64,000 nucleotides of DNA, from the NCBI GenBank assembly GCA_040755755.1, contig JBFLZW010000072.1, forward strand, positions 12,574 to 76,573, given 5' to 3'. The notes beneath the pieces are model-generated. The model made no database searches and was not told the DNA's origin. It saw nothing but the letters and a program-made list of their open reading frames with translations. Positions within the stretch are counted from its first letter, which is position 1. Each line of letters starts with the position of its first letter. This document shows, piece after piece, positions 27,207 through 47,814 of this stretch. The translations under genes were made by a program, and so were the position numbers. This DNA is from a bacterium (lineage in GTDB: Bacteria > SZUA-182 > DTGQ01).

Positions 27207-27230
27207 ACCGCATGCTCCCTGAGAATTTAC

Positions 27231-27868: not shown

Positions 27869-28009
27869 TGTAAACTCCCAAAATGCTCAGTTCTCCCTTT
27901 GGGAGGGGAGCATTACCAGTTTGTCAAAATCGAATTTCTCGTTCTCCATCCAGATCACCTCTCGCACCCTGTTGAGATGGCATGATTGACGGTTACGGTG
28001 CATTGGTTT

Positions 28010-28111
28010 CTATACTCTTAACGAATGGGTAATCCTCCCTCGGCAGTCATGTTCAGAAATCCGCTTGATGGGAAGATCTACTTCGATTAACCGCTTGGGA
28101 AACTGAGTCAA
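28010..28111 (-). pseudogene. Orphan 5' fragment of a DUF1156 methyltransferase gene (first ~20 codons, then divergence and a stop)
   Basis: My translation is TTG-TQFPKRLIEVDLPIKRISEHDCRGRITHSLRV*. Positions 28052-28099 match 27147-27194 at 46/48 nt. The TTG overlaps the stop of the 184-aa gene (TTGA). Confidence 0.75.
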
Positions 28112-28662: not shown

Positions 28663-28760
28663 GATTCTTCCTCCTCTTTCGGAGCGATTATAGTTTCACG
28701 ATTTTCTTTTAACCAGTTCTCGGCCTTATCTCTATGTTCCGGAGAAATAAAAACATTCGC

Positions 28761-28918
28761 TACCGGACACTTTTTTTTCAATTCCTGTAATCAACCGCGA
28801 ATGCACACGAATAGACGCTAATAAATTCTTTTGATTTGCCTTCATTATCGAGTCCTCTTTGTTCAGTTCGCGTTCATTCGCGTTCATTCGCGGTTGTTAC
28901 CTCAAAAGTGTCCGGTAG
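28761..28918. mobile_element. MITE-like palindromic element (~158 bp) with nested inverted repeats
   Basis: Outer inverted repeat: taccggacactttt (28761-28774) / aaaagtgtccggta (28905-28918). Inner inverted repeat: caaccgcgaatg (28792-28803) / cattcgcggttg (28885-28896). There is an internal 10-bp tandem cgttcattcg x2. A 9-bp direct repeat taaaaacat lies at 28748-28756 and 28923-28931. Confidence 0.5.
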
Positions 28919-29022
28919 AGAGTAAAAACATAGTCTATAGCGGCAACCGGTACATTCTTTAATGAATTCGATAGAGCCAATGACGAAATGATGCGCTCGT
29001 CTTTGGCTTGTATAGGGGTAAT

Positions 29023-29053
29023 TACTCAGGCACAGAGCTTCTGTGCCTGAGTA
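29023..29053 (-). terminator. Perfect 13-bp stem-loop downstream of the helicase gene
   Basis: tactcaggcacag-agctt-ctgtgcctgagta, read directly. There is no strong U-tract on the minus strand, so terminator function is uncertain. Confidence 0.4.
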
Positions 29054-29118
29054 GTTACTACTATTTTATGTATTCACATTCATGTGAGGGGATACACTTG
29101 TAGTCGATAGAGATTGCA

Positions 29119-32694: not shown

Positions 32695-33660
32695 CTAGGA
32701 ATACTTTTCCGCAGCTTTGGCCTGAATATCCTTGGGAAGCTGGATGCCCAACCTATAGGAAGTAGAGAGGTTGATAAAGATATCCGGTCGAGGAAGAAGA
32801 ATGGGAATCTGAGCAGGAGTTTTATTCTGCTTGATGATCTGATAAATAATATTATCCGCTACCTGCCTGCCTAACCGCTTTTGGTCATATTCCAGGGCAG
32901 CCAGGGCTCCCATTTGCGCTCCTATTTTTCCGCCTCCGATGAAGGGGAGCCTGCGATTCAGGCAGCTCGAAGTAATGACCGGCAAGGCTGCCTCGACATT
33001 TTTATCCTGAACAACTCCCAGGAGAGCATCTATCTTATCTAACAGGAAATCCAGCTTCTCCGGTAACTCCCTCCCGTTTTCAGGAATCGGGAGGGGCTTT
33101 ATCTCAAGGCCCTGACTGGTGCGGGCGAAATTTTGCAGGGCCTCAACCTGCTCTCTGGATCCGGGGATGCTTTCTGAATAGAGAACTCCAATCGTCTTCA
33201 GCCCCGGCAAAATACTGGTGTACAGCTTCATGCTCTCGGACCAGTCAAATCCGGAAAAGACTCCCGTGTAATTGGCAGCAGGTTTTTCCTGAAATTGAGC
33301 ATAGCCGATGATCGTACGTCCGGGAAGCTTTTCAAGAACCCGTTTCACTTTCTCCGTCCCGATGACATAAACGGGATCCTCTTTAATTTCTCCTAGGCTT
33401 GACTCCTGATAGAAGATGGTATGAATCCCCTTGAACAATAGTCCCTCCCGCAGCCCCTGGATATGCGCTTTATATTCCGCGTAACCATCGACAATGGCCA
33501 CCATGCCCCGTGCTCCGGGCGGAACCGGATCCTGAAAAGGTTTCCTCCTCACGAAGTAAATGATGATGACTATAATAACCAATAAGCTTAAATAAGTAAA
33601 GCTCCTAACCAAAATAACCTGCAATGCCTCACCGATATCTTCTTTTTCCTTCGACTGCAT
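32695..33660 (-). CDS. Membrane-anchored ABC-transporter substrate-binding protein (ABC_sub_bind/DUF534-like)
   Basis: 321 aa with an N-terminal TM segment. KTIGVLYSESIPGSREQVEAL...IDALLGVVQDKNV...LPFIGGG is typical of this family. Confidence 0.55.
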   Translation of the reverse strand: MQSKEKEDIGEALQVILVRSFTYLSLLVIIVIIIYFVRRKPFQDPVPPGARGMVAIVDGYAEYKAHIQGLREGLLFKGIHTIFYQESSLGEIKEDPVYVIGTEKVKRVLEKLPGRTIIGYAQFQEKPAANYTGVFSGFDWSESMKLYTSILPGLKTIGVLYSESIPGSREQVEALQNFARTSQGLEIKPLPIPENGRELPEKLDFLLDKIDALLGVVQDKNVEAALPVITSSCLNRRLPFIGGGKIGAQMGALAALEYDQKRLGRQVADNIIYQIIKQNKTPAQIPILLPRPDIFINLSTSYRLGIQLPKDIQAKAAEKYS

Positions 33661-33681: not shown

Positions 33682-36597
33682 CTATCGTTTGAAAAAAAAG
33701 GTTATAACAGCGGCCAGTACCCCAAAAAAGGTAACGATGGTCGATAAAGCTATGATCATGGCGAAAAATGTTTTAATGTATAAAAAGCCGACCAGGGTGG
33801 CGACGATGATTGTCAGGGTTATGGTAATCCAGGTAATATAACTGCTGATATCCCCGCTATGGATTTCACTCGCCCTTTTACACATGCGCAAAAACCGTGA
33901 TTGAGCAAAATCGTTTCCTCCCAGTTGGATTTTCGACAAATCTTCAGAGCCGATAATATCAAAGAGCGCTCGCTCGATGAACCTGTCATACCAGACCTCA
34001 ACGATATTAAAATACTTCCAGAGCCCGGCCTTGAATTCATCGCGTCTGGTTAACATGCCCCAGAAAAAGCGGCTGAAAATAACCCGGTCATACGCTCCAC
34101 TCAACTGGCCATCCGCTCTGGTGGCGTTATCGAAAATGCTGCGCTTGTCCGCTGCCAGGTCAAAAGAGTCTGAAAATTTTTCATCAGCATGTGAAATTCT
34201 GTCAAACAGCCTTCTCTCGGCAACAGCCCTGGCCTTATCAAAAACCATATCGTACATCGCATCTACCCGGGAAAAATGACCAAACATACGCCTGGTCCGG
34301 GCAGTCCGGTCGATAACCTGGGTATAGCTCTCATCGACCTGGGAAATGTGGCCGAATATTCCCTTGGCCCGAACGGTCTGATCAACGGACCGGGCATAGT
34401 GCTCGTCAACATGGGAAATCAGCCGGAACATGCCTTTTTCAGCATGCTGAACCGGATCAGGCACAATCAGTTCCCGTTTGATTCCCGGAATCCACAGATA
34501 CACCATCAGCACGGAAATAATTTTCTCGGCCACCCCGACAACTCTCTGGTAGGTTACCCGGCACACAGTGCGAAAGCCGGTAAATGCTTTCTGGTAATAG
34601 GGAGTCAATCCCCAGGCAGGCGACAGGACTTTTTCGGAAAGCCCGGAAGCCAGAAAGATGAGGAAAATCGTTCCTCCAGCCAAAATAGCCGTGCTGCCGC
34701 CGGAAAGGTTGTGAATTGCCTCCGTACTGGCCAGCAGGGTCCGGTGAACCGGATCATACCACAGCGGCAGGGTGGAGTGGGGCAGAGCGGCAGCATGGAT
34801 ATTATAGATCAGATGATAGGCATGAGAATGGGCGTCAAATCCAAAGTAGGGCAGCATGGGACCGATACAATGCTCCAGCAGCCAGTTGGGAAACAATCCA
34901 AAGAGCACAATACCTGCTGAAAAAAGAAGCAGTGAGATATTCATGCCCAGAGGCGAGGGAGAAGAAACCGGTTTACTCGTCGCCTCCTTTTTCGGTCCCA
35001 GAAAGACCATGCTGAAAAGTTTCATGGTATAGGCGAAGGTGCCGCCAGCCGTAATGATGAAAATGATTTCAGCTATCCGAAGCCCGAAATCGGGAGTGTG
35101 TGTGGGGGAGAAATGGACCGAGTGCTGATAGGCCTCCAGGATGGCATGGTGCAGCATGGTCTTGCTGGCAAAACCGTTCAGCAAAGGGAAGCCGGCAATA
35201 GCCAGGACACTGATCAGCAGCGTCAGGGCGGCAATCGGCAAATCCCGCCACAATCCGCCGAGTTTTCGGATATCAAGCTCCCTGGTGTGAAAGTAGACCG
35301 CTCCGACGCTCAGGAATAAGCCCACCTTGAACAGGGCGTGATTGACGATATGGTAGAGGGCTCCTGCAAGGCCCATCGCCCCGCTCCTGCCCATATAGGC
35401 AGCGCAGCCGATGCCCATGACAATGTAGCCCATCTGACTGACACTGGAATAGGCTAAAAGCCGCAGCGCCTGGGTGGAAAGCAGGGCATTGACAGCCCCC
35501 AGCAGCATGGTCATGATCCCCACAAAGATCAGCACATAGCCTAATTGCGCACAGGTCATCCAGGCCGCGGAGTTTTCCAGGTGGCTGGAAGGAGCAAAAA
35601 TCAGGTTGACGGTCCGGAATATCCCATAAGCGCCAACCTCGATCATGACCCCCGACGAGAGGGCAGCGGTGAGGCAGGGGGCTGAACCATAGGATGAAGG
35701 CATCCAGATATGCTCAAGAAAGACACCGGCTTTGCCGCCAAATCCTATGAGAAAGAGCGCGGCCACCCCATACTTGAGAGCCGGATATGCCATCCGGTCA
35801 AGGGCACCCGCCGCACTCTGCATGTCAACCGTACCGGCAAAATACGAGAACAGGAAAATTCCGAACAGCAGCAAAAGGCCGGTAAATACCCCAAAGTAAA
35901 GATAAACCCTGGCAGACTGCAGGGCTTCCTCATCCTCGCGATGAATAACCATCAGGTAGAGAAAGAGAAGGATCGATTCATAAAATATGTATAGAGTAAA
36001 GAGGTCCCCGGCCAGGAAAGCCCCCAGGGTTACACTCAGGCAGCACAGATTGGCGAAATTGTACCGCAGGCGGTGCTGCTCAACGGCTAAATACCCCTGC
36101 GAGAACATGGCAACCAAAAACCATACCAGGCAGGTAAAAACCGCCAGCGTAAAGGCCGCAGGATCGACCCTGAAGGTCAAATTCAGTGAGAACGAGGGCA
36201 AAAAGGGAAGAGCATAGTAGATTCCCTGGCGCAGAGCGCCTGCAAACCTTTGCCCCTGGATCACCGGCGAGTACATCAGCAGGGAAGTGGCCAGGGTCAG
36301 ACCGCTGAACAGGGTGACAATGATCCCCTGCCCCTGACTGTCCCGCAGCCACAGGAGCATCAGAGCCCCGATCAGGGGGATGAGGATAACCACCAGCGGG
36401 AGGGGGGAAGGAATGGACGTTTCCGGAGCCACTCTTTGGGTGACTTCCCCTGCTGCATGAGAACTATGCTCCGCGGGCTGTGAGGCCCAAACTTCAGACA
36501 CCAGGGAGGGAGGAGAAAAAGCAGGGGAAGGAAGAGAACAAAAAAGGAAAAATACCAAAACCACGCCGACGCCGACCGATGCTGTTATCTTGTTCAT
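33682..36597 (-). CDS. NuoL/MrpA-like proton-antiporter subunit with a long repeat-containing C-terminal extension
   Basis: 971 aa with Proton_antipo_M core motifs (FGGKAGVFLEHIWMPSSY, SSGVMIEVGAYGI, LAYSSVSQMGYIV, HIVNHALFKVGLFL). About 260 hydrophilic residues with ~24-aa tandem repeats follow, then two terminal TM helices. Confidence 0.75.
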   Translation of the reverse strand: MNKITASVGVGVVLVFFLFCSLPSPAFSPPSLVSEVWASQPAEHSSHAAGEVTQRVAPETSIPSPLPLVVILIPLIGALMLLWLRDSQGQGIIVTLFSGLTLATSLLMYSPVIQGQRFAGALRQGIYYALPFLPSFSLNLTFRVDPAAFTLAVFTCLVWFLVAMFSQGYLAVEQHRLRYNFANLCCLSVTLGAFLAGDLFTLYIFYESILLFLYLMVIHREDEEALQSARVYLYFGVFTGLLLLFGIFLFSYFAGTVDMQSAAGALDRMAYPALKYGVAALFLIGFGGKAGVFLEHIWMPSSYGSAPCLTAALSSGVMIEVGAYGIFRTVNLIFAPSSHLENSAAWMTCAQLGYVLIFVGIMTMLLGAVNALLSTQALRLLAYSSVSQMGYIVMGIGCAAYMGRSGAMGLAGALYHIVNHALFKVGLFLSVGAVYFHTRELDIRKLGGLWRDLPIAALTLLISVLAIAGFPLLNGFASKTMLHHAILEAYQHSVHFSPTHTPDFGLRIAEIIFIITAGGTFAYTMKLFSMVFLGPKKEATSKPVSSPSPLGMNISLLLFSAGIVLFGLFPNWLLEHCIGPMLPYFGFDAHSHAYHLIYNIHAAALPHSTLPLWYDPVHRTLLASTEAIHNLSGGSTAILAGGTIFLIFLASGLSEKVLSPAWGLTPYYQKAFTGFRTVCRVTYQRVVGVAEKIISVLMVYLWIPGIKRELIVPDPVQHAEKGMFRLISHVDEHYARSVDQTVRAKGIFGHISQVDESYTQVIDRTARTRRMFGHFSRVDAMYDMVFDKARAVAERRLFDRISHADEKFSDSFDLAADKRSIFDNATRADGQLSGAYDRVIFSRFFWGMLTRRDEFKAGLWKYFNIVEVWYDRFIERALFDIIGSEDLSKIQLGGNDFAQSRFLRMCKRASEIHSGDISSYITWITITLTIIVATLVGFLYIKTFFAMIIALSTIVTFFGVLAAVITFFFKR

Positions 36598-36638
36598 GGC
36601 ACAACTCTTCTCTCTGATGCTGAAAAAATCTCATACTG

Positions 36639-38153
36639 CTAATGAAAATAAAATTGGCTGATCCGCTGGGCCAGAGCCAGCGGGAAGCCAGGGAAAATCC
36701 CGAAAATCACCGTTCCCAGAGCCAGCAGGAAGACCGGAATCATCATCACCGGCCTGGGGTCCTGCCGATTCGCTCCCCTGTTACCCTCCTCCTGGATTCC
36801 AAACCAGGCGTTATAGACAATCGGGCCATAGTAGATCAGGTTCATGAAGCTGCTGACAATCAGGGTGCCGACGGCCAGAATGCCCACCCCCAGATTATAG
36901 GAGCCCACCTTGACCGCATCCAGTGCTCCGGCAGCCAGAAACCACTTGCTGATAAACCCGTTGAAGGGCGGAAGGCCGATCATCGACAGTGCTGCTGCCG
37001 TAAAGCAGGCGGTTACCAGCGGCATGCTCCTTCCGATTCCTTTCAGATCATTCAGACACCCTTTGCCGGTCTGATGGATAAATGCACCAGCGCACAAAAA
37101 CAGGGCGGCTTTAATGATCGCATGATTGAAAATGTGCAGAATCCCGGCGGTCAGCCCCAGAGGAGAAAGCAGGGTCAGGCCGAGAATGATGTAGCCGATT
37201 TGCGATACACTGGAGTAACCCAGAAGCCTTTTGATATCTTTTTGATTAATGGCCGCCGCAGAGCCGATGAAAATGGACACCAGAGCCATTCCCAGCAGGA
37301 TAGGCACCAGAACACCTGTCCGCAGGGATTCAAGACCGATGATACTGTAGATGGTCCGGATAATCCCGTAAGCCCCGGCCTTGATCATGACACCGGACGA
37401 GAGGGCCACAGCGCAGGTCGGAGTCTCGGGATAAGCCGAAGGCATCCAGAAATGCAGGGGAAAGATGCCTGCCTTCACCCCAAAGCCGAGGATGTAGCCC
37501 CAGAAAATCAGCGGCAGCCATTTACTTCCCTTTAATCCAAGGCCCACCACGGCAAGGTCGATCGAGCCGGTCAGGGAGCAGGTCAGTAAAATGGACATCA
37601 GGAGGATGAGCCCTCCGCAGATTCCCATGAAGATATAGATAACGCCCCCCCGCATGGCCGCCGGGGTCTGTTCGTGAAGCACCAGCACCAGCGAGGCTAC
37701 GCTCAGAAGCTCAAAGAAGACATACAGGCTGAACAGGTCCCCGGTAAAGACCACGCCAAGCATGCCCACCAGGGTGAGGAGCGAAAAAACATCATACCGG
37801 ATCCGGGCATGTTTTTTCCGCATGAATTCAATGGCAAAAAAGCTGGACAGCATCCAGACCCCCACTGCGATAAGCCCGATGAAGAATCCCAGGGCATCGA
37901 CTCTGAACGAGAAAACCAGCGGGGGAAATCCTCCTTGAGGAGGGGTGAACATGGCAAAGGTCCTGGTGATGACCTTTCCCGCCCTGATGTCCGGGTACAT
38001 GGCGGCAACGGTCAGAAAGGTCAGGAGCGTGGTGAGCGCGGTAAACAGGTTGACCTTTTCCGGAAATCGCCGGTTGATCCGCAGAATCACGGCAATTCCG
38101 AGAAGGGGAATGGATAATGCTAACAAGGGTAACATGCTGCTCATCTGGTTCAT
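36639..38153 (-). CDS. mrpD: MrpD/NuoN-like antiporter subunit (paralog 3)
   Basis: 504 aa with FFELLSVASLVLVLH, GVKAGIFPLHFWMPSAY and LGYSSVSQIGYII. It is a close paralog of 41594-43153. Confidence 0.8.
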   Translation of the reverse strand: MNQMSSMLPLLALSIPLLGIAVILRINRRFPEKVNLFTALTTLLTFLTVAAMYPDIRAGKVITRTFAMFTPPQGGFPPLVFSFRVDALGFFIGLIAVGVWMLSSFFAIEFMRKKHARIRYDVFSLLTLVGMLGVVFTGDLFSLYVFFELLSVASLVLVLHEQTPAAMRGGVIYIFMGICGGLILLMSILLTCSLTGSIDLAVVGLGLKGSKWLPLIFWGYILGFGVKAGIFPLHFWMPSAYPETPTCAVALSSGVMIKAGAYGIIRTIYSIIGLESLRTGVLVPILLGMALVSIFIGSAAAINQKDIKRLLGYSSVSQIGYIILGLTLLSPLGLTAGILHIFNHAIIKAALFLCAGAFIHQTGKGCLNDLKGIGRSMPLVTACFTAAALSMIGLPPFNGFISKWFLAAGALDAVKVGSYNLGVGILAVGTLIVSSFMNLIYYGPIVYNAWFGIQEEGNRGANRQDPRPVMMIPVFLLALGTVIFGIFPGFPLALAQRISQFYFH

Positions 38154-38162
38154 AGGTCTCTC

Positions 38163-39941
38163 TTACACAACATTCATCAGATTGTGAATCCTTCTTACTA
38201 CATCCTCCGGCACAAAGGGATGGGTGATATAGTCATTCGCTCCCATCTGGAACCCTCGTTCAATCTCGGACCGCTGGGCAGAGGCCGAGAGGATGATTAC
38301 CGGAATGTTCCGGGTTTTCTCGTTTATCTTGATGATCTGGCATAAATCATAGCCGCTTAGTTTTGGAAGACTGATATCGAGCAGTATCAAATCCACAGGG
38401 TCCTGGAAGATCTTTTCCAGGGCTTCGATTCCGTCACCGGCAGTGGCGATTTTCCAATTTTGCCTGCTGATGCAGGTTATGATCAAATCCCGGATAACCG
38501 GATTATCGTCAACCACCAAGATATGACGCTTCCTGGCATCCTGCTGTCTGTCTGGGGCATCCTCAGCCGTCAGGCTGTTGCAGGGCATCTTTTTATCCGA
38601 AGGCTCTACTCTGGTCCCGGCGGCCTCAGTCAAGGCTCTTCCGGCTCTGGGCAAGGTGAAGGAAAAGGTGCTGCCCTCTCCCTTCCTGCTCTTGACCCAC
38701 ATCCGTCCATGATGCAGGTCCACGATATTTCTGGCAATGCACAGCCCCAGTCCGGTCCCTCCGTGTTCACGGGTAGCCGAATTGTCTACCTGGTAAAATT
38801 TATCGAAAATCTTATGGATTTCCTCTTCGTCCAGGCCGATGCCCGTATCACTGACATTGATCTGCACAAAGTCCTGAGCAGGCCAGTTTTCACCCTGTGC
38901 CCCTTCCTCAACTTCGGGAAAAGCTTCCAGGACGACCTCTCCCCGGGCCGGAGTAAATTTCATGGCATTGCTCAAAAGGTTGGTGAGTACCTGGGAAACT
39001 TTCTGCTTATCTGCATAAACCTGGGGAAGCCCATCCGGGATACGGGTTGTGAAGCGGATTCCCTTTTTCTCGAACAGAGGCCGCATGGAATCGATGGTGA
39101 CTCCTGCCATTCTGGCAAAATCCGAAACCTCCTGCCGGATTTCATATTTGTCCAGCTCGATCCGGGACAGATCGAGCAGGTCACTGATCAGACTATTCAA
39201 GTGATCCGCCCGCTCATCGGCGATAGTCAGCCCCTTGAGCTGCTGCTCATTGACCGGCCCCAGCCGCTGGTTTTTAATTAACGAGATATATCCCTTGATT
39301 ACTGTAAGCGGCGTTCGCAGCTCATGCGACACGATTGAGAGAAAATCCGATTTTATGGCATTCAGCCTTTCCAGTTTCGCATTGGCTTCACACAATACCC
39401 GGTCCCGCCTTTCCAGTTCCTGATTAACCCTCTCGATTTCAACCCGCCGGTCCTGCAAAGATGCAGCCATGCGGTTAAACGCTCCGGCCAGCTCTCCGAT
39501 CTCGTCATGGCTGCTGATGGCAATCCGCTCATTCAACTGCCCCTGGCCGATCGATTCCGCCTTTTTGGCCAGAGAAATGACCGGATCGGCAAATCTGTTC
39601 GCCAAAAATAACGATACGCCCAAGGTGGCGATAAAACTCAGCATCGTACCTGCAAAGAGGATGACTCTATCCCGTGCAGCTATCCTGTTTAACCGGTCCG
39701 TGCTTCGGATAACCTCCCGGTCCTTCGGACTGGAAGGGTCCAGCTTACCGCTCATTTCCCGAAGCTCATAACTAACCCGCAGCAGGGAAACATAGGCAAA
39801 GGTTCCCACCGTGATCGTACAAAAGATGACCACCAGAAACCCGATCATCAATTTCTGAGTAATCGAAAGATTCGTTATTCCTGAAAACATAAAAAATACC
39901 AGCGACCACAGAGGAAGGATGGTAACAACCATCACCCCCAC
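38163..39941 (-). CDS. Hybrid sensor histidine kinase / response regulator (TM-HAMP-HisKA-HATPase-REC)
   Basis: 592 aa with HAMP (DEIGELAGAFNRMAASL), the H-box FLSIVSHELRTPL, the G-box GGTGLGLCIARNIV and a REC domain (ILVVDDNP..DLILLDISLP). The start is GTG at 39941 or ATG at 39932. Confidence 0.85.
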   Translation of the reverse strand: MGVMVVTILPLWSLVFFMFSGITNLSITQKLMIGFLVVIFCTITVGTFAYVSLLRVSYELREMSGKLDPSSPKDREVIRSTDRLNRIAARDRVILFAGTMLSFIATLGVSLFLANRFADPVISLAKKAESIGQGQLNERIAISSHDEIGELAGAFNRMAASLQDRRVEIERVNQELERRDRVLCEANAKLERLNAIKSDFLSIVSHELRTPLTVIKGYISLIKNQRLGPVNEQQLKGLTIADERADHLNSLISDLLDLSRIELDKYEIRQEVSDFARMAGVTIDSMRPLFEKKGIRFTTRIPDGLPQVYADKQKVSQVLTNLLSNAMKFTPARGEVVLEAFPEVEEGAQGENWPAQDFVQINVSDTGIGLDEEEIHKIFDKFYQVDNSATREHGGTGLGLCIARNIVDLHHGRMWVKSRKGEGSTFSFTLPRAGRALTEAAGTRVEPSDKKMPCNSLTAEDAPDRQQDARKRHILVVDDNPVIRDLIITCISRQNWKIATAGDGIEALEKIFQDPVDLILLDISLPKLSGYDLCQIIKINEKTRNIPVIILSASAQRSEIERGFQMGANDYITHPFVPEDVVRRIHNLMNVV

Positions 39942-40056
39942 CCAGCCTCCCCTGCCACAGGGTCTCCCTGCCTCAAGGGCAGTGTCATTGCCTTCGTGCT
40001 ACTAACCCCAAGTCCCTCACCCCAACCCTCTCTCCAAAGGGACGAGGGAGAAAAAC

Positions 40057-40190
40057 GCTCTGCCTTTTCTCTGTGTTTCTCTGTGCCTCTGTGTCTCTGT
40101 GGTGTCCTTTGCCTTTGTCTTTGTATTTGTCTTTGACTTTGCCTTGGTGTTGGTATTTGCCTTAATCTTGGTCTTTGCCTTCGTCTTTTT
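40057..40190. repeat. CACAGAG-octamer core plus ~14 units of hexamer microsatellite (TTTGNN plus-strand / NNCAAA minus-strand)
   Basis: Plus strand: ctctgccttttctctgtgtttctctgtgcctctgtgtctctgtggtgtccttt gcc tttgtc tttgta tttgtc tttgac tttgcc ttggtg ttggta tttgcc ttaatc ttggtc tttgcc ttcgtc. The core matches 16801-16840. Confidence 0.85.
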
Positions 40191-40192
40191 CC

Positions 40193-41185
40193 TTACCCGT
40201 CCAGGGTGACCGGAGAGTCGGTCGCCTCATTTTTGGCCGTTGATTGAGTCTTTCGCCGGTCCTTCTGGTAATTGCTCCCCTCAATCCTCTTGACGTGCTT
40301 CTTTAATTCCGCTGCCTTCTCAGCAACCTGGAGATGATGAATAAACTGGTTGTTTTCATTCGTAATAACCACAATCGAAATAGTCATCAGCGGGAATTTT
40401 TTAACCTCTCCCCTTCGATCCTCGCTGATCAGGTATCCTCTGGTTACATCCTCCTCGTTATACTGGATCGGAATGAGACTGTCGAAGATTCTGATAATTT
40501 CCTGGCAGATCTGATCCGCTTTATCAGGAGTGGTCAGGACCACAAAATCGTCGCCGCCGATATGGCCGGTAAAGTCCTGGGGGTTGCCAAAGCGCCTTAC
40601 GCTGTCTGAAATCGTGTGCGCGCAAAATTTGATGATCCTGTTTCCAGCCGCATACCCGTAATTGTCATTATAGACCTTGAAGTTATCGAGATCGATGAAC
40701 AGGGCTGCAAAGCTTCTCTGCTCATCAATGGCCCGCTGGATTTCCTTCTCGATGGGAACATTGCCCGGCAGATGCGTCAGGGGATTCGCATAGAGATCGC
40801 GCCTCATTTTCCGGAGCAGGGCCTTGATTCTGGCCTCCAGCTCTACCGGGTCGAAGGGCTTGACCAGGTAATCGTCAGCCCCGATATTCAGCCCTTCAAC
40901 TTTATCGTTTATGGTCTGTTTGGCTGTCAGCATGATTACCGGAACATGGGCGGTTTTGGTACTTTCCTTCAGTGCCTTGCACACTTCCATGCCTGACTTT
41001 TCCGGCAGCATAACGTCAAGCACCACAACGTCAGGATCATAGGCATTAACCTTTTCCAGGGCCTCGACGCCTGTTCGGGCCTCTGAGATACGGTAAGCGC
41101 GGGAATTCAAACTCAGCCGGATAATATCCCGCGTATCCGGATCATCATCGACAATCAATATCTTGGTCTGCTCGGACGAGTTCAT
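40193..41185 (-). CDS. Response regulator with a GGDEF-family output domain (variant GGDDF motif)
   Basis: 330 aa with REC (ILIVDDDPD..DVVVLDVMLP..KP) plus a GGDEF-type domain (NDNYGYAAGNRII..GHIGGDDFVVL). Confidence 0.8.
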   Translation of the reverse strand: MNSSEQTKILIVDDDPDTRDIIRLSLNSRAYRISEARTGVEALEKVNAYDPDVVVLDVMLPEKSGMEVCKALKESTKTAHVPVIMLTAKQTINDKVEGLNIGADDYLVKPFDPVELEARIKALLRKMRRDLYANPLTHLPGNVPIEKEIQRAIDEQRSFAALFIDLDNFKVYNDNYGYAAGNRIIKFCAHTISDSVRRFGNPQDFTGHIGGDDFVVLTTPDKADQICQEIIRIFDSLIPIQYNEEDVTRGYLISEDRRGEVKKFPLMTISIVVITNENNQFIHHLQVAEKAAELKKHVKRIEGSNYQKDRRKTQSTAKNEATDSPVTLDG

Positions 41186-41201
41186 TCTCCTTCTCCTTGC
41201 G

Positions 41202-41573
41202 TCATTTTGACTCCCCCCGTAAAGTGCTGCTTTTTTTATTTTTCAACCTGTCCAGGTAGGTGATAAATCCAAAAGCCCAAAGAGCGATCCCCAGAGTCAG
41301 CTTGTAAAAAAACCGTAAAAATCCTATCTCATTGACCTCATGATATCCGGGAACAAATACTTTTGCGGCAGAATCAAAATACCCGCTTAAAATCTGTCCC
41401 TGCTCCATGAGATAGAGGGAAAGAGCCAAGAAAATGAAAAGTAAGGTCAATGGCTTGATAAGCCGATGTTTCTCCCTTTGATGGAGGAAGAAAAAATACG
41501 ACACCATAAGAACCACCATGGCGATTAATCCAACCCAATACAATTTATAGAGCAGGGGAATGTTACCAGACAT
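41202..41573 (-). CDS. Small 3-TM membrane protein, unknown function
   Basis: The ORF is trimmed to the ATG at 41573 (MSGNIPLLYKLYW...), 18 nt after the upstream mrpD stop. The track start at 41708 overlaps mrpD. Confidence 0.45.
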   Translation of the reverse strand: MSGNIPLLYKLYWVGLIAMVVLMVSYFFFLHQREKHRLIKPLTLLFIFLALSLYLMEQGQILSGYFDSAAKVFVPGYHEVNEIGFLRFFYKLTLGIALWAFGFITYLDRLKNKKSSTLRGESK

Positions 41574-41593
41574 CCAATAAAACTCCTTCCTGA

Positions 41594-43153
41594 TTACGGG
41601 AAGAATATACGGCTGATCTGCCAGGCAATGCGCAGCGGTATGCCCGGCGCAATGCCAAAGACCAGAACAGCAGTGGTTAATAGTAAGATCGGCGTCAGCA
41701 TGACCCAATTGGGATCTTCGCTTTTATGCTCTTTCGAGCCTGGATTGGCTGAAGCGGCATGAGCGTGATCCGCCACGGCAGCATGGCTGCCGGCAGGCTG
41801 GTGGGCTGCATCGTGCTCCTCTCTTGGCTGCATCCAGGCACCGATGACTACCGGACCGTAGTAAACCAGGTTCAGCAGACTGCTGAGCAGCAGGGTCAGG
41901 AGGGCGATCAAGCCCAATCCCGGCCAGTAATTACCCATTTTCATCATATCCAGCGCTCCCAGGGCCAAAAACCACTTGCTGATGAACCCGATAAACGGCG
42001 GCAGCCCGATCATCGACAGGGCGCAGATGCTGAAAGCCAGGGTAATCCACGGCATTCTCCGTCCAATTCCCTTCAGGTCCTCCAGGTTCCGCAGACCGGT
42101 TTTATAAATAAATGCCCCGGCGCACATGAACAGTGTCCCTTTCATCAGGGCATGGCCAAAGATATGGACCATGCCGCCGACAATGCCCCGCGGAGCCAGC
42201 AGGCAAAATCCCATGATGATATACCCGATCTGCGAAATACTGGAATAAGCCAGCATCTTCTTGATTTCCGTCTGGGTGATGGCGCAGGCTGACCCCAGAA
42301 AGATAGTCACCAGACTGATAATCAGCATCGGCAGCAACAGGCCCATGTGATCCTTGACAATGTCCTGATAGCCGATGATATTGTAAATGGTCTTGAAAAT
42401 TCCATACGCTCCGGCCTTGATCATAACGCCCGAAAGAAGTGCACTGGCTCCGGAGGGGGCTACCGGGTGGGCTGACGGGAGCCAGATATGGAGAGGAAAC
42501 ATACCGGCTTTGACTCCGAAACCGATGATGTAGCCCCAGAATATCCAGGGCAGCCATTTGCTCCCCTGCAGCCCGAGGCCGATCAGGGTAAGGTCTCCGG
42601 TTCCGGTAATGTAATAGGTCATGACAATGGAAAAGAGGAGCACCAGTCCTCCGGCGATTCCCAGGAACAGATACTTGAATCCCGCTTTCATGGCCTCAGG
42701 GGTTTCCTCGTGAAAGACGAGAATGGCCGAGGCCACACTCAACAGTTCGAAAAATATGTAGAGCGTGAAAAGGTTTCCGGTAAAGACCACGCCCATCATT
42801 CCGCTGAGTGAGAGAAGAGAGAAGATGTTGAACCGGGCATGTGCATGGGAATGATGCATATATTCGATGCTGTAAATTGAAGACAGGGTCCAGAGGACAA
42901 CGGAAATGAGGCCGACGAAAAGACCGGGCAGATCGGCCCGGAAAACGAAATTGAAGCCCAGCCCCGTATCCAGGGTAAGGTCAAGGATATTCCCGTCGAC
43001 AATCGCCGGATACATGGCGAGAATAAGGAGCATGGTGACTCCGCTGACAATAGCCGTATAATGATACAGCCGGTGCTTCTGGACAAAGGGGCGAAAGATC
43101 ATGGCAATGAGAGGGAACATAACCACTAACAGGGGAAGATAGCTTTTAATCAT
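41594..43153 (-). CDS. mrpD: MrpD/NuoN-like antiporter subunit (paralog 2)
   Basis: 519 aa with FFELLSVASAILVFH, GVKAGMFPLHIWLPSAH and LAYSSISQIGYII. Confidence 0.8.
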   Translation of the reverse strand: MIKSYLPLLVVMFPLIAMIFRPFVQKHRLYHYTAIVSGVTMLLILAMYPAIVDGNILDLTLDTGLGFNFVFRADLPGLFVGLISVVLWTLSSIYSIEYMHHSHAHARFNIFSLLSLSGMMGVVFTGNLFTLYIFFELLSVASAILVFHEETPEAMKAGFKYLFLGIAGGLVLLFSIVMTYYITGTGDLTLIGLGLQGSKWLPWIFWGYIIGFGVKAGMFPLHIWLPSAHPVAPSGASALLSGVMIKAGAYGIFKTIYNIIGYQDIVKDHMGLLLPMLIISLVTIFLGSACAITQTEIKKMLAYSSISQIGYIIMGFCLLAPRGIVGGMVHIFGHALMKGTLFMCAGAFIYKTGLRNLEDLKGIGRRMPWITLAFSICALSMIGLPPFIGFISKWFLALGALDMMKMGNYWPGLGLIALLTLLLSSLLNLVYYGPVVIGAWMQPREEHDAAHQPAGSHAAVADHAHAASANPGSKEHKSEDPNWVMLTPILLLTTAVLVFGIAPGIPLRIAWQISRIFFP

Positions 43154-43221
43154 AATCGTTGTCTCCTTGAGCTACCGAAAATGCGCCAATAGTAAAAGCC
43201 AGGGGGGCAGCTTCACCTCTT

Positions 43222-44799
43222 TTACCTTAACAGCAGCCTGGCCGCAGGCAAGGCAGCACCGTGATAAGGATATTTTACGAGCACTCCCAGGATAATTACT
43301 AATACGGCTAAAATGCAGACCGGTATCAACATTGTTTTAGATGCTTCGTCAACTGTCTCTATCTCTATCTTCGGATTTCCAAAATAGCTGATCGCCACTA
43401 CCCGAAAATAATAAACCGCATTCAACAGGCTGCTGACCAGAAGAACAATAAGCAGCCACGGCATACCCGCCTGGATAGTGGCTGTAGCCAGAACCCATTT
43501 GCTCATGAAACCGCACATCGGAGGAATCCCCACCAGCGAACAGGCTCCGATGGTGAAACAGGCCATGGTGGCAGGCATCCGATATCCCAATTTTCCCATG
43601 TCGGTGATATTCCTGATGCCCGTTTTGTACAGAATGATTCCGGAGCACAGAAACATCAAACTCTTAACAATGGCATGGTTAACGATATGGAGGATAGATC
43701 CGGCCAGCCCATAGGGAGTGATCAGAGCTATCCCGAAAAGAATGTACCCCATCTGGGCAATGGTTGAATAGGCCAGCATTCTTTTTAACTGCGTCTGAAC
43801 TATTGCAAAAAGTGAGCCACTCAGAATGGTGATACTGCTGATAATTAAAAAAAGCGGAGAGATGATTTCTCCATAGTAGCCTTTATGGATGCCAAAAACC
43901 GTGAACACAAAGCGAATCAGTAAAAATACCCCGGTAGTTTTGACAATCAGTCCGGATAAAAGAGCACTGATCGATGCCGGGGCCGCGGGATGAGCATCAG
44001 CCAGCCAGGCATGGCTGGGGAAAAAGGCAGCCTTGATACTGAATCCCATGATGAATAATCCCAGTGAAGCATAAACCAGATACCGGTAGGGAGAGAGCGG
44101 TGATCCGGGATGAGAGCCGACGATTTTGGCAATCTGCTGGGAGGCATAATTCATATTGAGCGTTCCGGTGGCATTAAAGAGGAGCCCAATGGCAAAAACG
44201 ATCAGGATTGAGCTCAAAGCCCCGGTGAGAATATACTTGAAGGTGGCTTCCAGCGACTCAGGCCGCCCGCTGATAGAGACCAGCGTATAGGAGCTGATGG
44301 AAGCGATTTCGAAAAAAACATAGAAATTGAAGCAGTCGCCGGTGATGGCAATCCCGGACATTCCTGCCAGCATCAGGAGCAGCAGAGTGTAATAATAGGT
44401 GTGCTTTTCCTTCGGTACTTCATGGTGAATGTATCGGCAGGAATAGAGCGAGGCCAGAAAACCGATGCCGTTGATCAAAATCAGCAGGATGGCCCCGAAA
44501 AGATCTGTGCGCAGGGCGATGCCGATCGGCTGGCCTGTCTGGAGCTGGCTTTTGCCTCCCCAGTGATATCCGGTCAGATACTCGATATATCCGGTGGGGG
44601 AGGCCAGGACCTTGGTCAGGATCGCCAGAGAGGCTGTAAAACCGGCCACGGTGACCAGAAGGACCAGGGGCTCCCGGTATTTCGGGTTGAGCCTGGAAAT
44701 GATGGGAATTACCAGGGCACTGGCTATTAAAATAACCGGGACCAAGATTTGTAAATGAGATGCACCGATGCCAATAGCTGAATCCATACTACCAACCAT
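43222..44799 (-). CDS. mrpD: MrpD/NuoN-like antiporter subunit (paralog 1)
   Basis: 525 aa with FFEIASISSYTLV, SIKAAFFPSHAWLADAH and LAYSTIAQMGYIL. Confidence 0.8.
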   Translation of the reverse strand: MVGSMDSAIGIGASHLQILVPVILIASALVIPIISRLNPKYREPLVLLVTVAGFTASLAILTKVLASPTGYIEYLTGYHWGGKSQLQTGQPIGIALRTDLFGAILLILINGIGFLASLYSCRYIHHEVPKEKHTYYYTLLLLMLAGMSGIAITGDCFNFYVFFEIASISSYTLVSISGRPESLEATFKYILTGALSSILIVFAIGLLFNATGTLNMNYASQQIAKIVGSHPGSPLSPYRYLVYASLGLFIMGFSIKAAFFPSHAWLADAHPAAPASISALLSGLIVKTTGVFLLIRFVFTVFGIHKGYYGEIISPLFLIISSITILSGSLFAIVQTQLKRMLAYSTIAQMGYILFGIALITPYGLAGSILHIVNHAIVKSLMFLCSGIILYKTGIRNITDMGKLGYRMPATMACFTIGACSLVGIPPMCGFMSKWVLATATIQAGMPWLLIVLLVSSLLNAVYYFRVVAISYFGNPKIEIETVDEASKTMLIPVCILAVLVIILGVLVKYPYHGAALPAARLLLR

Positions 44800-44965
44800 T
44801 CCTTATGAGCTTTTAGATCAACAAGTTGCTTATACCTGGCTAGCTTTCGCGCTCGAGATTATATCCTTTTGATCGCTCTCATGATCACCCTACACCAGAG
44901 AGAGGAGCATTCGTAGCCTTGATGCCGCCCTGCAAGGATCATCTATTTTTTGAGATCGTTAATCT

Positions 44966-45370
44966 TTACCCTTTTAATCTCATGATCTTCCGAGTATCCA
45001 ATGTCCCGTAATGTTCGTATATTTTTATGGATAAGGCCAAAGAAATGGCCGTTACACTGATGCTGACCACAATGGCCGTTAAAATAAGGGCCGATGGTAT
45101 TGGATTAACCAAAGCCACCTGCCCGGCTGCCGCTCTGGCCGCATGCGCGGCATCGGCAATTTCCGGCGGTCCTGCCCACTGCCAGGTGGCAGGTCCAAGC
45201 CGGACATCCGCCGAGGCGATGAAGAACAGGTAGACCGAAGTTTCGATCACATTCATCCCGATCAGTTTCTTGATCAGATTGGGTTTTACGATCAGCGCAT
45301 ACAGCCCGATGCAAAACAGGATGACGGTAACAATGTAATCGATTCTACTCAATACCGGTTCGATCCACAT
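44966..45370 (-). CDS. mrpC: MrpC/NuoK-like subunit
   Basis: Trimmed to the ATG at 45370 (MWIEPVLSRIDYIVTVILFCIGLYALIVKPNLIKKLIGMNVIETSVYLFFIA). It has three TM segments and overlaps the mrpB end by 26 nt. Confidence 0.65.
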   Translation of the reverse strand: MWIEPVLSRIDYIVTVILFCIGLYALIVKPNLIKKLIGMNVIETSVYLFFIASADVRLGPATWQWAGPPEIADAAHAARAAAGQVALVNPIPSALILTAIVVSISVTAISLALSIKIYEHYGTLDTRKIMRLKG

Positions 45371-45887
45371 CCGACCATCTCCTCGTGTACGGCAGTTCCC
45401 GGTGATTTTTCCGATAGGCTTCATCCCGCCTCTCTTCCAGGAATGCGAAAAATAACCCGGTGAAGATACTGGCCACAGCCAGACCGACACCGATATTAAT
45501 CCAAAAAAGAGTCCCTCCGCTGAGAAGCTCTCCCGGCATACCGGACGGATAGATACCAGCCGCCTTATTGGCCAGAAAACGATATCCCAGGAACATACCG
45601 GCCAATCCTGCGCCGATATACAGGAATATCCCCGCACTGACCCCCCACATCAATGAAGAAGCGGGGACCATCTTGCGGCCCTTTTTTCTCTGAAAAGCCA
45701 GAGTGAAGAGAATGCATGCGGCACTGATAATCACCCCGCCCTGAAATCCCCCTCCCGGAGTCAAATGCCCGTGAGTGATCAGGTAGATGCCGAACATGAT
45801 AACAAAGGGGCACATTATCCGGCTGACCTGCTGAATGACAATGCCTGTATGGTATTCCTGTCGATCTTTCCTTCCCTGGTCATTCAT
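45345..45887 (-). CDS. mrpB: MrpB/MbhF-like subunit
   Basis: Trimmed to the ATG at 45887 (MNDQGRK...). The HGHLTPGGGFQGGV signature is that of MnhB-type subunits. Confidence 0.7.
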   Translation of the reverse strand: MNDQGRKDRQEYHTGIVIQQVSRIMCPFVIMFGIYLITHGHLTPGGGFQGGVIISAACILFTLAFQRKKGRKMVPASSLMWGVSAGIFLYIGAGLAGMFLGYRFLANKAAGIYPSGMPGELLSGGTLFWINIGVGLAVASIFTGLFFAFLEERRDEAYRKNHRELPYTRRWSDVDRTGIE

Positions 45888-46221
45888 GGGGGTTGTCACT
45901 CTCTCTCGTGCCGATGATGGAAAGTACGCCAATCAGGGCTGCAAATAAAACAGTTGTTTCAAAAAGGGTATCATACCCCCGGTAATCGAAAATAATGGCC
46001 GCGATAATATCCAGCGCACCCGTCTCCGCGCAGGCATGACGATTGTAGTGCAGGGCAACGGAATCGGCCTTTTCAACCACCTGAGCTTTGGTCAGGGAAG
46101 GATCAACGAAATCTGCATATCCGGGCAGATGAGGATCCCCGATGGGGTTAAACCTCATGATAACCAGTACCATGCTGAAGGCAAAAACCGTAAACAGTAT
46201 GGCCGGAAGAAATTTCCTCAC
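45880..46221 (-). CDS. MbhE-like / MrpB N-terminal-like subunit
   Basis: 113 aa. DIIAAIIFDYRGYDTLFETTV matches the D(Y/F)RG(Y/F)DTLGE motif of Mbh/Mrp B-type subunits. Confidence 0.6.
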   Translation of the reverse strand: MRKFLPAILFTVFAFSMVLVIMRFNPIGDPHLPGYADFVDPSLTKAQVVEKADSVALHYNRHACAETGALDIIAAIIFDYRGYDTLFETTVLFAALIGVLSIIGTRESDNPHE

Positions 46222-46470
46222 TTAATCCTCCCTCCTCTTTGTCCTGCAGAGGGCGGCGACGAACAAAATGCTGGAAATTCCAGCTCCCACGGCAGCTTCG
46301 GTCATGGCCACATCCACTGCCCTCAATATGCTGTAGGTTACGGTAATAGTAAAGCTGTAAGCACTGTAAATAATGACCGATTCCAGAAGGTCCCTGGACA
46401 TGATGGCCGCAAGAGCAGTCGCCACCAGAAAGATCAGGATAATCACATGAGCCAGGATTACAGGATCCAT
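46222..46470 (-). CDS. DUF4040 / MbhD-like small membrane subunit
   Basis: Trimmed to the ATG at 46470 (MDPVILAHVIILIFLVATALAAIMSRDLLESVIIYSAYSF..MTEAAVGAG), giving 82 aa. Confidence 0.55.
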   Translation of the reverse strand: MDPVILAHVIILIFLVATALAAIMSRDLLESVIIYSAYSFTITVTYSILRAVDVAMTEAAVGAGISSILFVAALCRTKRRED

Positions 46471-46490
46471 ATTTTTTTCTCTTTCCTTAC

Positions 46491-46844
46491 TCAACCTTTC
46501 CGGTCCTTCAAAAGATTCACGGTGGTTCCCTTCACCCACGGCACCCCGGTCTTGTAGCAGAACCGCAGAATGGCATGCACCGCTATCGGGTTGGAAAACA
46601 ACATGAAAACAAGAATCAGCAGGATTTTTAAACTCTCCAGGGGGTTGATGGTCAACCAATAGAGCCATACGCCGGTCAGGGAGAGGAGAAACCCCGGGCC
46701 ATCACCCTTTCCGGCTGCATGGGCCCGGTTATACGGGTCAGGCATCCGGATGATACCGACCGTGGCTGCAACGAAAAAAAATACACCGCCGGTAATAAAG
46801 ATTCCGGCTACAATCTGCAGCAATACCGTCACGTAGATCATCAC
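46491..46844 (-). CDS. mrpG: MrpG/MnhG-like subunit
   Basis: 117 aa with GIIRMPDPYNRAHAAGKGD (the RxPDxYxRxHAxxK signature). Confidence 0.7.
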   Translation of the reverse strand: MMIYVTVLLQIVAGIFITGGVFFFVAATVGIIRMPDPYNRAHAAGKGDGPGFLLSLTGVWLYWLTINPLESLKILLILVFMLFSNPIAVHAILRFCYKTGVPWVKGTTVNLLKDRKG

Positions 46845-47116
46845 TCACCCAGGTCCCGATGTTCCAGATATTTGATAAAAGCGATTGTGGTCACATAGAT
46901 CAGCATGGCATAGAGCATGGCGATATCGAGGAACGAGCTTTTTTGAAAAATGGCCGCCAGAAAAACGAACGCCACTACGGCCTTGGTCCCCACTACATTG
47001 ATGCCAATAATCCGGTCGGCAGTGGTCGGACCCAGCACAGCCCGGTAGAGGCAGAAAAAAATCGTGCAGGACAGGACCAAAATAGCCAGTTTCAATAAAA
47101 AGTCGAGCTCAATCAC
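46841..47116 (-). CDS. mrpF: MrpF/MnhF-like subunit
   Basis: Trimmed to the GTG at 47116 (GTGA overlap with the mrpE stop; GGAGG lies 8 nt upstream). LYRAVLGPTTADRIIGINVVG is the MnhF signature. Confidence 0.65.
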   Translation of the reverse strand: MIELDFLLKLAILVLSCTIFFCLYRAVLGPTTADRIIGINVVGTKAVVAFVFLAAIFQKSSFLDIAMLYAMLIYVTTIAFIKYLEHRDLGE

Positions 47117-47676
47117 CTTTGTTTCCTCCGATAAATAGAGCGGATTTTCTCCACAAATCCCCCGCTCTCCAGTATCCCCTTCACTGCTTCCTGACTGATA
47201 CAATGAACCCAGAAAATACTTCCTTTATCCGTTTTTTCCGCCTCAATAGTAATCGTACCGGGCGTAAGAGTAATCGAGTTGGCGTTCAGGGTAATCTCCC
47301 CATCCGTGTGCAGAGGAGTTTCAACCTGGACAATGCCCGGAGAGATCATCAATTGTCTGCGCAATACTCTCCTGGCCACATCGATTCCGGCCAGGAAAAT
47401 ATCGATCATCAGACGATTGCCGTACATGACCAGCCGAAACAGCGTTCCAAGGTCACGGTGCTTCGAGATTTGCCGGGAACTGAAAATACATTCCGGGTAC
47501 AGGGAAACGATGAGCAGGGAAATGATCAATCCGACGATACTGTGTTCGAAAAGATTTATCAGACCTAATTTTGACCAGATGCCGTCATGGAGAGAAATAA
47601 CCATCCAGAACAAAAAAAGACAGACTGCCGCCACCCCAAATTCATCCCTCTTTTTTCCCCTCAATAACCTTCTCAA
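47113..47676 (-). CDS. mrpE: MrpE/MnhE-like subunit
   Basis: 187 aa with two N-terminal TM helices and NANSITLTPGTITIE (the MnhE SITLTPGT block). Confidence 0.7.
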   Translation of the reverse strand: MRRLLRGKKRDEFGVAAVCLFLFWMVISLHDGIWSKLGLINLFEHSIVGLIISLLIVSLYPECIFSSRQISKHRDLGTLFRLVMYGNRLMIDIFLAGIDVARRVLRRQLMISPGIVQVETPLHTDGEITLNANSITLTPGTITIEAEKTDKGSIFWVHCISQEAVKGILESGGFVEKIRSIYRRKQR

Positions 47677-47784: not shown

Positions 47785-47814
47785 AATTTACCATACCGGC
47801 ACTGGCTTTGTCAA
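47785..47814 (-). promoter_or_regulatory. Candidate sigma70 promoter of the mrp operon (TTGACA-18-TAAATT)
   Basis: Minus strand: ttTTGACAaagccagtgccggtatggTAAATTt, about 100 nt upstream of the mrpE start. Confidence 0.35.

Follow-up and report, generated by a model that had tools for sequence, protein, structure and literature searches.

A 64,000-nucleotide (nt) stretch of contig JBFLZW010000072.1 (assembly GCA_040755755.1; hereafter, the window), from a bacterium of the GTDB lineage SZUA-182; DTGQ01, carries on its minus strand an Mrp-like operon with four antiporter-like pump genes, which probably encodes a self-contained cation/proton antiporter. An earlier note on this DNA had described a continuous minus-strand array running from MrpE to a NuoL-like gene, and this array (33682..47676) was recovered in full, every family call being strongly supported by Pfam. 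It opens with the genes for an MrpE/MbhA-like subunit (47113..47676; PF01899 MNHE, E=8e-27), an MrpF/MbhB-like subunit of 91 amino acids (aa) that starts from the GTG at 47116 (46841..47116; PF04066, 4e-15), and an MrpG/MbhC-like subunit (46491..46844; PF03334, E=4e-22; TIGR01300, 64.6 bits against a cutoff of 63.1). These are followed by an MbhD-like subunit, the equivalent of transmembrane (TM) helices 17-19 of MrpA (46222..46470; PF13244, E=9e-19; alignment to 6u8y_D and 6cfw_D), which is the gene listed as DUF4040 in the earlier note; an MbhE-like subunit, the equivalent of MrpA TM20-21 (45880..46221; PF20501, 5.5e-7; alignment to 6cfw_E, 6u8y_E, and 6z16_A); an MrpB/MbhF-like subunit (45345..45887; PF04039 MnhB, E=6e-29; alignment to 6cfw_F and 6z16_B); and an MrpC/MbhG/NuoK-like subunit of 134 aa (44966..45370; PF00420 Oxidored_q2, E=7e-24).

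The remainder of the array is dominated by the pump genes, all with the Proton_antipo_M domain (PF00361), namely, D1, of the MbhH/MrpD type (43222..44799; 525 aa, E=2e-65), D2 (41594..43153; 519 aa, 4e-60), D3, a paralog of D2 (36639..38153; 504 aa, 2e-54), and L, of the MrpA-N/NuoL/MbsH' type (33682..36597; 971 aa, 1e-45). Between D2 and D3 lie the genes for a 123-aa, 3-TM accessory subunit of an unnamed family (41202..41573), a response regulator (RR) with REC and GGDEF-like domains (40193..41185), and a hybrid sensor histidine kinase (HK) with two TM segments and the Pfam architecture HAMP-HisKA-HATPase_c-REC (38163..39941). With start codons picked by ribosome-binding sites and ortholog sizes, neighboring genes mostly overlap by 4-26 nt or lie 0-21 nt apart; the longer gaps are mrpC to D1 (166 nt), D1 to D2 (68 nt), RR to HK (251 nt), and D3 to L (41 nt), so that the two spacers singled out in the earlier note are real, but two further junctions also exceed the 25 nt it gave as the norm. 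The end of the cluster had likewise been placed too early: the conserved cluster runs one gene beyond L, to a membrane-anchored periplasmic binding protein of the ABC_sub_bind family with an N-terminal TM segment (32695..33660; PF04392, E=8e-21). Upstream of mrpE, a consensus scan returned a promoter-like site, TTGACA-18-TAAATT with TG (47785..47814, minus strand; 10/12 matches), a candidate by pattern match only.

Taken together, these genes account for all the Mrp domains (A-N, A-C, B, C, D, E, F, and G, by Pfam), with MrpA-C present as MbhD plus MbhE and MrpA-N present as L, and the genes on either side of the Mrp cluster are unrelated to it. No redox Pfam family was detected in any window open reading frame (ORF) of at least 150 aa; no homologs of NuoA, B, C, D, H, I, J, E, or F (phmmer, E<=0.01) and no MbhJ, K, L, or N or NuoH-like MbhM genes were detected among the window ORFs of at least 40 aa; and no window ORF contains a CxxCxxCxxxC motif. 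In the ~10 kb past the window start, there are only glycosyltransferase-type genes and no redox homolog. The claim that the window holds no hydrogenase, NuoBCDHI-like, or ferredoxin subunit is thus confirmed by Pfam, phmmer, and motif scan alike, and the operon lacks both the NuoB/C/D/I-like plus NuoH-like genes of an Mbh/Mbs/Mbx-type respiratory complex and the nuoA, B, C, D, H, I, and J genes of complex I.

The four pump proteins have the MbhH subunit of Pyrococcus furiosus as their best match among solved structures, D1 by far the most strongly (286 bits to 6cfw_H). Orthogroups were delineated from BLAST comparisons and a bootstrapped neighbor-joining tree, with bootstrap support given for the orthogroup-level clades: H, which includes D1 (0.955), Y, which includes both D2 and D3 (0.94), X (0.92), and L (0.865). 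D2 and D3 score ~490-500 bits to each other, and orthogroup X is absent from the window, so that the four modules fall into three orthogroups, one H, two Y, and one L. The count of four antiporter-like modules in the earlier note, accordingly, stands, but its description of D1-D3 as three MrpD paralogs does not, D1 being of the MbhH/MrpD type and D2 and D3 belonging to another clade. Neither are these the subunits of an ordinary group 2 Mrp: MrpG alone scores above its NCBIfam equivalog cutoff, and the pumps match MbhH best. When aligned to Escherichia coli NuoL, NuoM, and NuoN, all four modules show the Glu in TM5, a Lys in each of TM7 and TM12, and the pair of His in TM11. The key residues are E164, K256, K287, and K434 in D1, E136, K215, K246, and K393 in D2, E148, K227, K258, and K403 in D3, and E207, K289, E320, and K479 in L; the TM8 Lys is kept in D1-D3, with Glu (E320) at this position in L. 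The same Glu is invariant among the 15 nearest homologs of L and is also present in a 3-pump relative, with Lys retained in more distant L-type proteins. We also considered D3 and the 971-aa protein as a DAB (DabA/DabB) pair and rejected this assignment, the 971-aa protein being itself a Proton_antipo_M/N protein with no match to DUF2309/PF10070.

In L, TM1-14 and TM15 are followed by a predicted lateral element of ~250 aa, after which the chain ends in two predicted TM helices. In the AlphaFold2 model built from a 46-sequence alignment, the 14-TM core, TM15, and the helix at residues 664-700 are confident, with high values of the pLDDT confidence score for residues 66-700, and a Foldseek search with this model retrieved MrpA chains first, with 7qru_A as the best match (~880-900 columns aligned). 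The C-terminal motif of L, IHSGDISSYITW, is the counterpart of 'QTG....Y' at the end of the NuoL lateral helix and is present also in MbhI-like ORFs of Thermococcales loci; the 'IHSGDISSY' motif of L is common to MbhI and NuoL ('HTGD..Y') and lies where the lateral helix meets TM16. The motif and the MrpA match point to L as a probable terminal subunit of the MrpA-N/MbsH'/NuoL type, with a predicted lateral element and distal anchor. Within the lateral element, periodicity analysis delineated five tandem repeats of 24-26 aa (aa 723-845, coding region 34063..34431, minus strand; period 24, z=10.3, 0/500 shuffles). Relatives with at least 49% identity have 4-5 copies; the consensus over 59 copies is [ILM]F..I[ST].[AV]D..[YLF]...[VF]DK[AV]I..[RK], and its conserved positions lie on a single helix face (p ~0.005). 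Most long L-type proteins likewise show a 24-28-aa period in their lateral regions, including those with a canonical NuoL C-terminus encoded in complex I operons, in which three copies are nearly identical. A correspondence of one lateral-helix repeat to one pump was not supported: relatives with four and with six pumps both have 4-5 repeats, and the L of a three-pump relative (L021 in the survey below) is shorter by ~250 aa rather than by 26 aa.

In the cation-handling subunits, most of the residues of the Na+ path proposed for Mrp, namely, MrpA Glu687 and Glu780 and MrpB His34/Phe41 (PMC9568556), have conserved equivalents: the Glu of the 'AMTEAAVGAG' motif in the MbhD-like subunit (Glu687), the 'DYRGYDTLFE' motif with its Glu in the MbhE-like subunit (Glu780), and the 'GHLTPGGGF' motif in the MrpB-like subunit (His34 and Phe41). 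The one Mrp hallmark of this path that is missing from the window is the conserved, mutation-sensitive Asp38 of MrpF: alignments to 6z16_F, 6u8y_B, and 6cfw_B place Asn at the position of Asp38 of Bacillus pseudofirmus MrpF. The Asn is found in all 15 relatives that bear the Y-small-Y-L run of genes (hereafter, the cassette) and in stand-alone clusters of ANME-2/Methanosarcinales, and the Asp is retained in Mbh/Mbs, Mbx-like, and Halanaerobiales clusters. In the ANME-2/Methanosarcinales MrpF, both conserved Asp are missing ('GPGIFNRIIAVNVIGTK').

The 3-TM accessory subunit has no Pfam or NCBIfam match, and its homologs, with three TM helices and an invariant His-Glu pair, are encoded in every cassette locus. 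The family is very rare: a word-based search yielded only 3 relatives, and an exhaustive profile search of 1.84e9 clustered proteins yielded 34 representatives. In the window, the gene (in the region 41202-41708, overlapping the D2 end) is shorter than in relatives, with 123 aa versus 175-269 aa, and its product is devoid of the N-terminal signal anchor and the His/acid-rich periplasmic segment seen there. The subunit co-varies with the length of L, being present at every locus where L has at least 834 aa and absent where it has at most 728 aa. It is neither MbhI, the motif of which is found in the C-terminus of L and not in the small protein, nor a paralog of MrpC/NuoK (hhalign probability 0.1%). 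In the RR, the GGDEF-like domain has the motif GGDDF at the site where diguanylate cyclases have GG[DE]EF, and the Pfam match spans only positions 6-111 of 161. The RR-HK spacer (39942..40192) is 251 nt long in the window, its L002 and L003 counterparts measuring 74 and 13 nt, respectively (loci are numbered with three digits, as distinct from subunit L), and its sequence is not conserved. Most of it is filled by a purine-rich low-complexity repeat, (AAAGRC)n-like on the coding strand (40061-40188), and it contains no terminator-like site on the minus strand. The 166-nt mrpC-D1 spacer (44800..44965) includes blocks kept in the closest relatives, L008 and L009, such as 'CATCAAGGCTACGAATGCTC' and 'GATAGCCAGGTATAAGCAACTTGTTGATCTAAAAGCTCA', and could be an internal promoter or leader. 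There was no Rfam match at E<=1 in either of the two long spacers.

The closest homologs of the 971-aa L come from uncultivated, unclassified bacteria, and in the closest contigs, L002 and L003, the gene order is the same as in the window, including the small protein, RR, HK, and the downstream ABC_sub_bind gene. To survey the loci more broadly, one genome per species was scanned with a D1-ortholog alignment, and the loci were annotated by phmmer, which yielded 14 close loci, L008-L021. The order of the window is kept in nine of these, whole in L008-L011, L013-L015, and L017 and up to the contig end in L012, and L016 differs only in having no two-component genes. L018 and L019 (Candidatus Schekmanbacteria) have the order H-X-Y-small-L, with L018 cut off before L; L020, a metagenome-assembled genome (MAG) of Elusimicrobia, has H-X-small-Y-L; and L021 has three pumps only, no small protein, and an L of ~725 aa. 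The cluster comes without redox genes in 12 of these 14 species-level genomes, the two exceptions being L020, where nuoABCDH directly follows the cluster, and L018, with its truncated locus. In L016, L004/L019, L005, and L020, the pump genes are contiguous without RR and HK, so that RR and HK were inserted later into a pre-existing array of pump genes; the association of the ABC_sub_bind gene with the cluster persists in loci that have no kinase.

Two more distant relatives of L occupy a different setting. In L006 (1-17520) and L007 (232-17272), an X-Y-small-Y-L cassette lies between nuoK and nuoM of nuoA-B-C-D-H-I-J-K...nuoM-N-E-F-G operons, which thus possess the complex I gene set and include six Proton_antipo_M genes each; the NuoG encoded there is a 1788-aa fusion with molybdopterin domains. 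In L005 (12990-19763), as in L020, a four-pump Mrp-like cluster is directly followed by nuoA-B-C-D-H, and this nuo cluster, which comes with a nuoJ, a nuoK, and pump genes of its own, therefore looks like a separate complex. In place of NuoI, L005 encodes a 641-aa protein in which Fer4 and pyridine-nucleotide-disulfide oxidoreductase domains are fused, and a Y1 transposase gene lies within the cluster. The front end, E-F-G-MbhD-MbhE-B-C-H, is widespread. It is accompanied by hydrogenase-type genes in Thermococci and Hadarchaea (Mbh/Mbs), forms stand-alone E-F-G-MbhD-MbhE-B-C-H-X-L clusters with three pumps and an L of ~640-710 aa in ANME-2/Methanosarcinales MAGs (L022-L043, L057, and L085), and appears in Mbh-ordered Mrp clusters of Halanaerobiales MAGs (L083, L084, and L086), with three or four pumps of ~500 aa each, without a long L-type subunit, and with the MrpF Asp kept.

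Among the characterized systems, group 3 Mrp is the closest in organization. This group has no full-length mrpA, an irregular gene order, and at least one mrpD-type gene (PMC8415708, PMC5703873), all of which the gene map of the window displays, and it includes the functional stand-alone Mrp of P. furiosus, mrpEFGBB'CD (PMC8415708). Like the window, group 3 operons such as this one and the cyanobacterial mrpCD1D2EFGAB (PMC8415708, PMC5703873) lack redox genes, encode the MrpA C-terminal domain in separate small genes, sometimes have several mrpD copies, and have their genes in the sequence E-F-G-(A-C)-B-C-D, either directly or circularly permuted. The Mbh-like order that the earlier note contrasted with mrpABCDEFG is, therefore, present as described but is not a sign of an Mbh-type complex, nor is it by itself new, being the group 3 layout already known from P. 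furiosus. What sets the window apart from group 3 is the presence of four rather than one to three pump modules, the separate 971-aa MrpA-N-type subunit with its repeat-built lateral element, the 3-TM subunit of an unnamed family, the MrpF Asp38 to Asn replacement, the two-component system, and the linked binding protein. Classical group 1/2 Mrp (B. pseudofirmus 7QRU, Anoxybacillus flavithermus 6Z16, and Dietzia 7D3U) share with the window all seven subunit domains, an L model closest to MrpA, and the equivalents of the MbhD and MbhE Glu and of MrpB His34/Phe41; in the window, however, three genes stand in for the single mrpA, two pump subunits are added, the TM8 position of L is Ser/Glu versus the His248 switch of MrpA, MrpF Asp38 is absent, and the NCBIfam equivalog cutoff is reached by MrpG only. 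The membrane arms of Thermococcales Mbh/Mbs (6CFW, 6U8Y) share with the window the order of the first eight genes, an MbhH subunit to which D1 is most similar, and the MbhI-type 'IHTGD..Y' motif, which L carries at its C-terminus, as does MbsH', but the window has no MbhJ/K/L/M/N genes, and further pump subunits occupy the position of the redox module.

A different kind of parallel is offered by complex I variants with extra pumps and a longer lateral helix of the terminal subunit (Nitrospira 2M, the rhizobial 'green' type, and Manganitrophus Complex_I_3), as described in PMC9040806. The 24-26-aa repeat unit of the window matches the 26-aa insertions reported there, but in those variants there is a single insertion of ~26 aa for each added subunit, whereas the window has a tandem array of 4-5 copies with a surplus of ~150 aa, and the host complex is Mrp in the window and complex I in those variants. 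Full-text searches of the literature did not find a four-pump Mrp with these features or a repeat-built lateral helix described.

In view of the full Mrp domain set, the unrelated flanking genes, and the prevalence of relatives without redox genes, we consider it reasonably probable that the product of the operon is a cation/proton antiporter of the group 3 Mrp type (split-MrpA, Mbh-ordered), self-contained, electrogenic, driven by the proton motive force, and lengthened to four antiporter-like modules, which supports the expanded stand-alone translocator proposed in the earlier note. Taking the solved structures of Mrp, Mbh, and Mbs as a guide, we infer an arrangement in which MrpE, MrpG, MrpF, MrpB, MbhD/MbhE, and MrpC would form the cation-handling end. 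D1 would adjoin MrpC and be followed by D2 and D3, with the small 3-TM subunit between them, and L would close the row, its lateral element, enlarged to ~250 aa by the five one-faced helical repeats, running back along the row and anchored by the two C-terminal helices. Because all four modules keep the Glu/Lys relay, each would be expected to conduct H+, and the membrane potential could then bring in a larger number of H+ for each cation extruded than the ~2 H+ per Na+ of the two-pump Mrp, for which a 2 H+/Na+ model has been proposed (PMC9568556). Such a raised H+ stoichiometry would permit cation extrusion or pH homeostasis at a low proton motive force or against steep gradients. The longer row might be held together by the lateral element of L and the small subunit. 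Extra pumps with lateral-helix insertions have a precedent in complex I (PMC9040806). The hybrid kinase, the REC-GGDDF regulator, and the anchored binding protein might tune expression or activity to an external signal. Several observations pull the other way. The Y-small-Y-L cassette is found also inside or beside complex I operons; residues 700-971 of L are modeled as helical segments and two terminal TM helices with pLDDT <50, so that the geometry of the lateral strut stays a prediction; at ~250 aa, the lateral element is 2-3 times the length needed for three neighbors (~150 aa extra); repeat copy number does not follow pump number; and, because MrpF Asp38 is replaced by Asn and the TM8 Lys of L by Glu, the cation path or the ion itself may differ, to judge from the sequences, from those of characterized Mrp.

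The absence of redox genes could, alternatively, mean that the cluster is the membrane arm of a redox-driven ion pump, similar to Mbh/Mbs/Mbx or to complex I, the peripheral and NuoH-like modules of which are encoded elsewhere. The embedding of the X/Y-small-Y-L cassette between nuoK and nuoM in L006 and L007, the position of nuoABCDH directly after the whole Mrp-like cluster in L005 and L020, the best match of all four pumps to MbhH, and an MrpF without the Asp used in classical Na+/H+ Mrp are all compatible with this possibility. Nevertheless, we regard it as unlikely, given that no NuoH/MbhM, NuoB/C/D/I, or ferredoxin gene is present in the window or beside the cluster in 12 of the 14 closest genomes, that the nuo clusters in L005 and L020, with their own nuoJ, nuoK, and pumps, look separate, that split respiratory operons with the entire Q-module elsewhere are unusual, and that an MrpA-N-type L is present here, whereas the redox module replaces MrpA-N in Mbh (PMC8415708). 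Still less probable, in our estimate, is a division of the operon between two assemblies, a small Mrp resembling that of P. furiosus (E-F-G-MbhD-MbhE-B-C-D1, to which D2 and the small protein might also belong) and an independent D3-L pair that is expressed with, or controlled by, the two-component system separating them. The RR and HK genes and the 251-nt spacer do divide the array in the window, the Mrp of P. furiosus functions with one MrpD and without MrpA-N (PMC8415708), and MrpD-like pairs on other complexes are known (TO_2 in Manganitrophus, PMC9040806). However, the pump genes are contiguous in the relatives without RR and HK, the spacer shrinks to 13-74 nt in others and contains no minus-strand terminator-like site, D2 and D3 are close paralogs, and, in every solved homolog, the lateral helix and the distal anchor clamp neighboring pumps (PMC9568556). 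Thus, as far as gene order can indicate, synteny makes both the redox-arm and the two-assembly explanations less likely.

The charge changes bear on a further alternative, under which the stand-alone complex would exchange protons for K+, Ca2+, or NH4+ instead of Na+, or would serve mainly as a proton-coupled sensor or regulator. The replacement of MrpF Asp38 by Asn with a nearby Lys ('INVVGTK') throughout the clade and in ANME-2 clusters, as well as the Lys to Glu change in TM8 of L, would be explained thereby, K+- or Ca2+-specific Mrp systems exist (PMC5703873), and the signaling genes are embedded in the operon. We nonetheless give this explanation only a small chance: the remaining residues of the proposed Na+ path are conserved, a second, MrpF-independent route of Na+ entry to the MbhD Glu has been proposed (PMC9568556), and ion specificity is not a property that sequence can reveal.

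Beyond the ABC_sub_bind gene, the neighborhood of the antiporter operon includes an anti-phage system, Hma (21341-32619, minus strand), composed of the SNF2 helicase HmaA (29119-32619), the methylase HmaB (24195-27206), and the ATPase HmaC (21341-24181), with PADLOC E-values of 1e-117 to 1e-191. A DarG-like ORF of 184 aa (28108-28662) lies within the Hma region, and the whole is an insertion of ~11.5 kb with a lower GC content, which separates ABC_sub_bind from the gene for an 887-aa protein (18516-21179, minus strand), the two being directly adjacent in L002 and L003. The 887-aa protein, a conserved neighbor of the cluster in L002 and L003, shows only weak, coiled-coil-type matches. On the other side of the operon, an 809-aa ORF (53471-55900, plus strand) has no Pfam match.

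The Mrp-type operon described here includes, as its new features, four pumps from three orthogroups, a repeat-bearing lateral element of ~250 aa, a rare 3-TM family, the charge changes in MrpF and L, and an embedded two-component system. A broader and more speculative interpretation, to which we attach a distinctly minor but not negligible probability, is that Y-small-Y-L is a portable 'pump-extension cassette'. Under this scenario, the lateral clamp of L may be built of ~25-aa tandem units, each about one pump width, and duplication of the repeats could lengthen the array as modules join. Attached to an Mrp front end, the cassette may yield a four-pump stand-alone antiporter, and inserted into complex I, as in L006 and L007, a six-pump enzyme, and the MrpF Asp to Asn and L Lys to Glu changes would mark a re-wired ion path and an unusually high H+/cation ratio.

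How distant antiporter-like modules are coupled in Mrp and complex I, and what sets the ion stoichiometry, is still debated. With double the pump modules of a usual Mrp, a repeat-built lateral element, a dedicated accessory subunit, and two charge changes at positions central to the mechanism, the operon offers a natural test of how complex I-like machines gain pumps; its comparison with the known systems bears on whether stoichiometry scales with module number, on whether the lateral helix is a passive, length-matched strut, and on which acidic residues cation transfer really needs. Moreover, the shared cassette points to six-pump complex I variants in uncultivated bacteria, with six pump genes in the nuo operons of L006 and L007 compared with the five-pump maximum described, and called unique, in a 2022 study (PMC9040806). 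Such variants would extend the known range of respiratory energy coupling.

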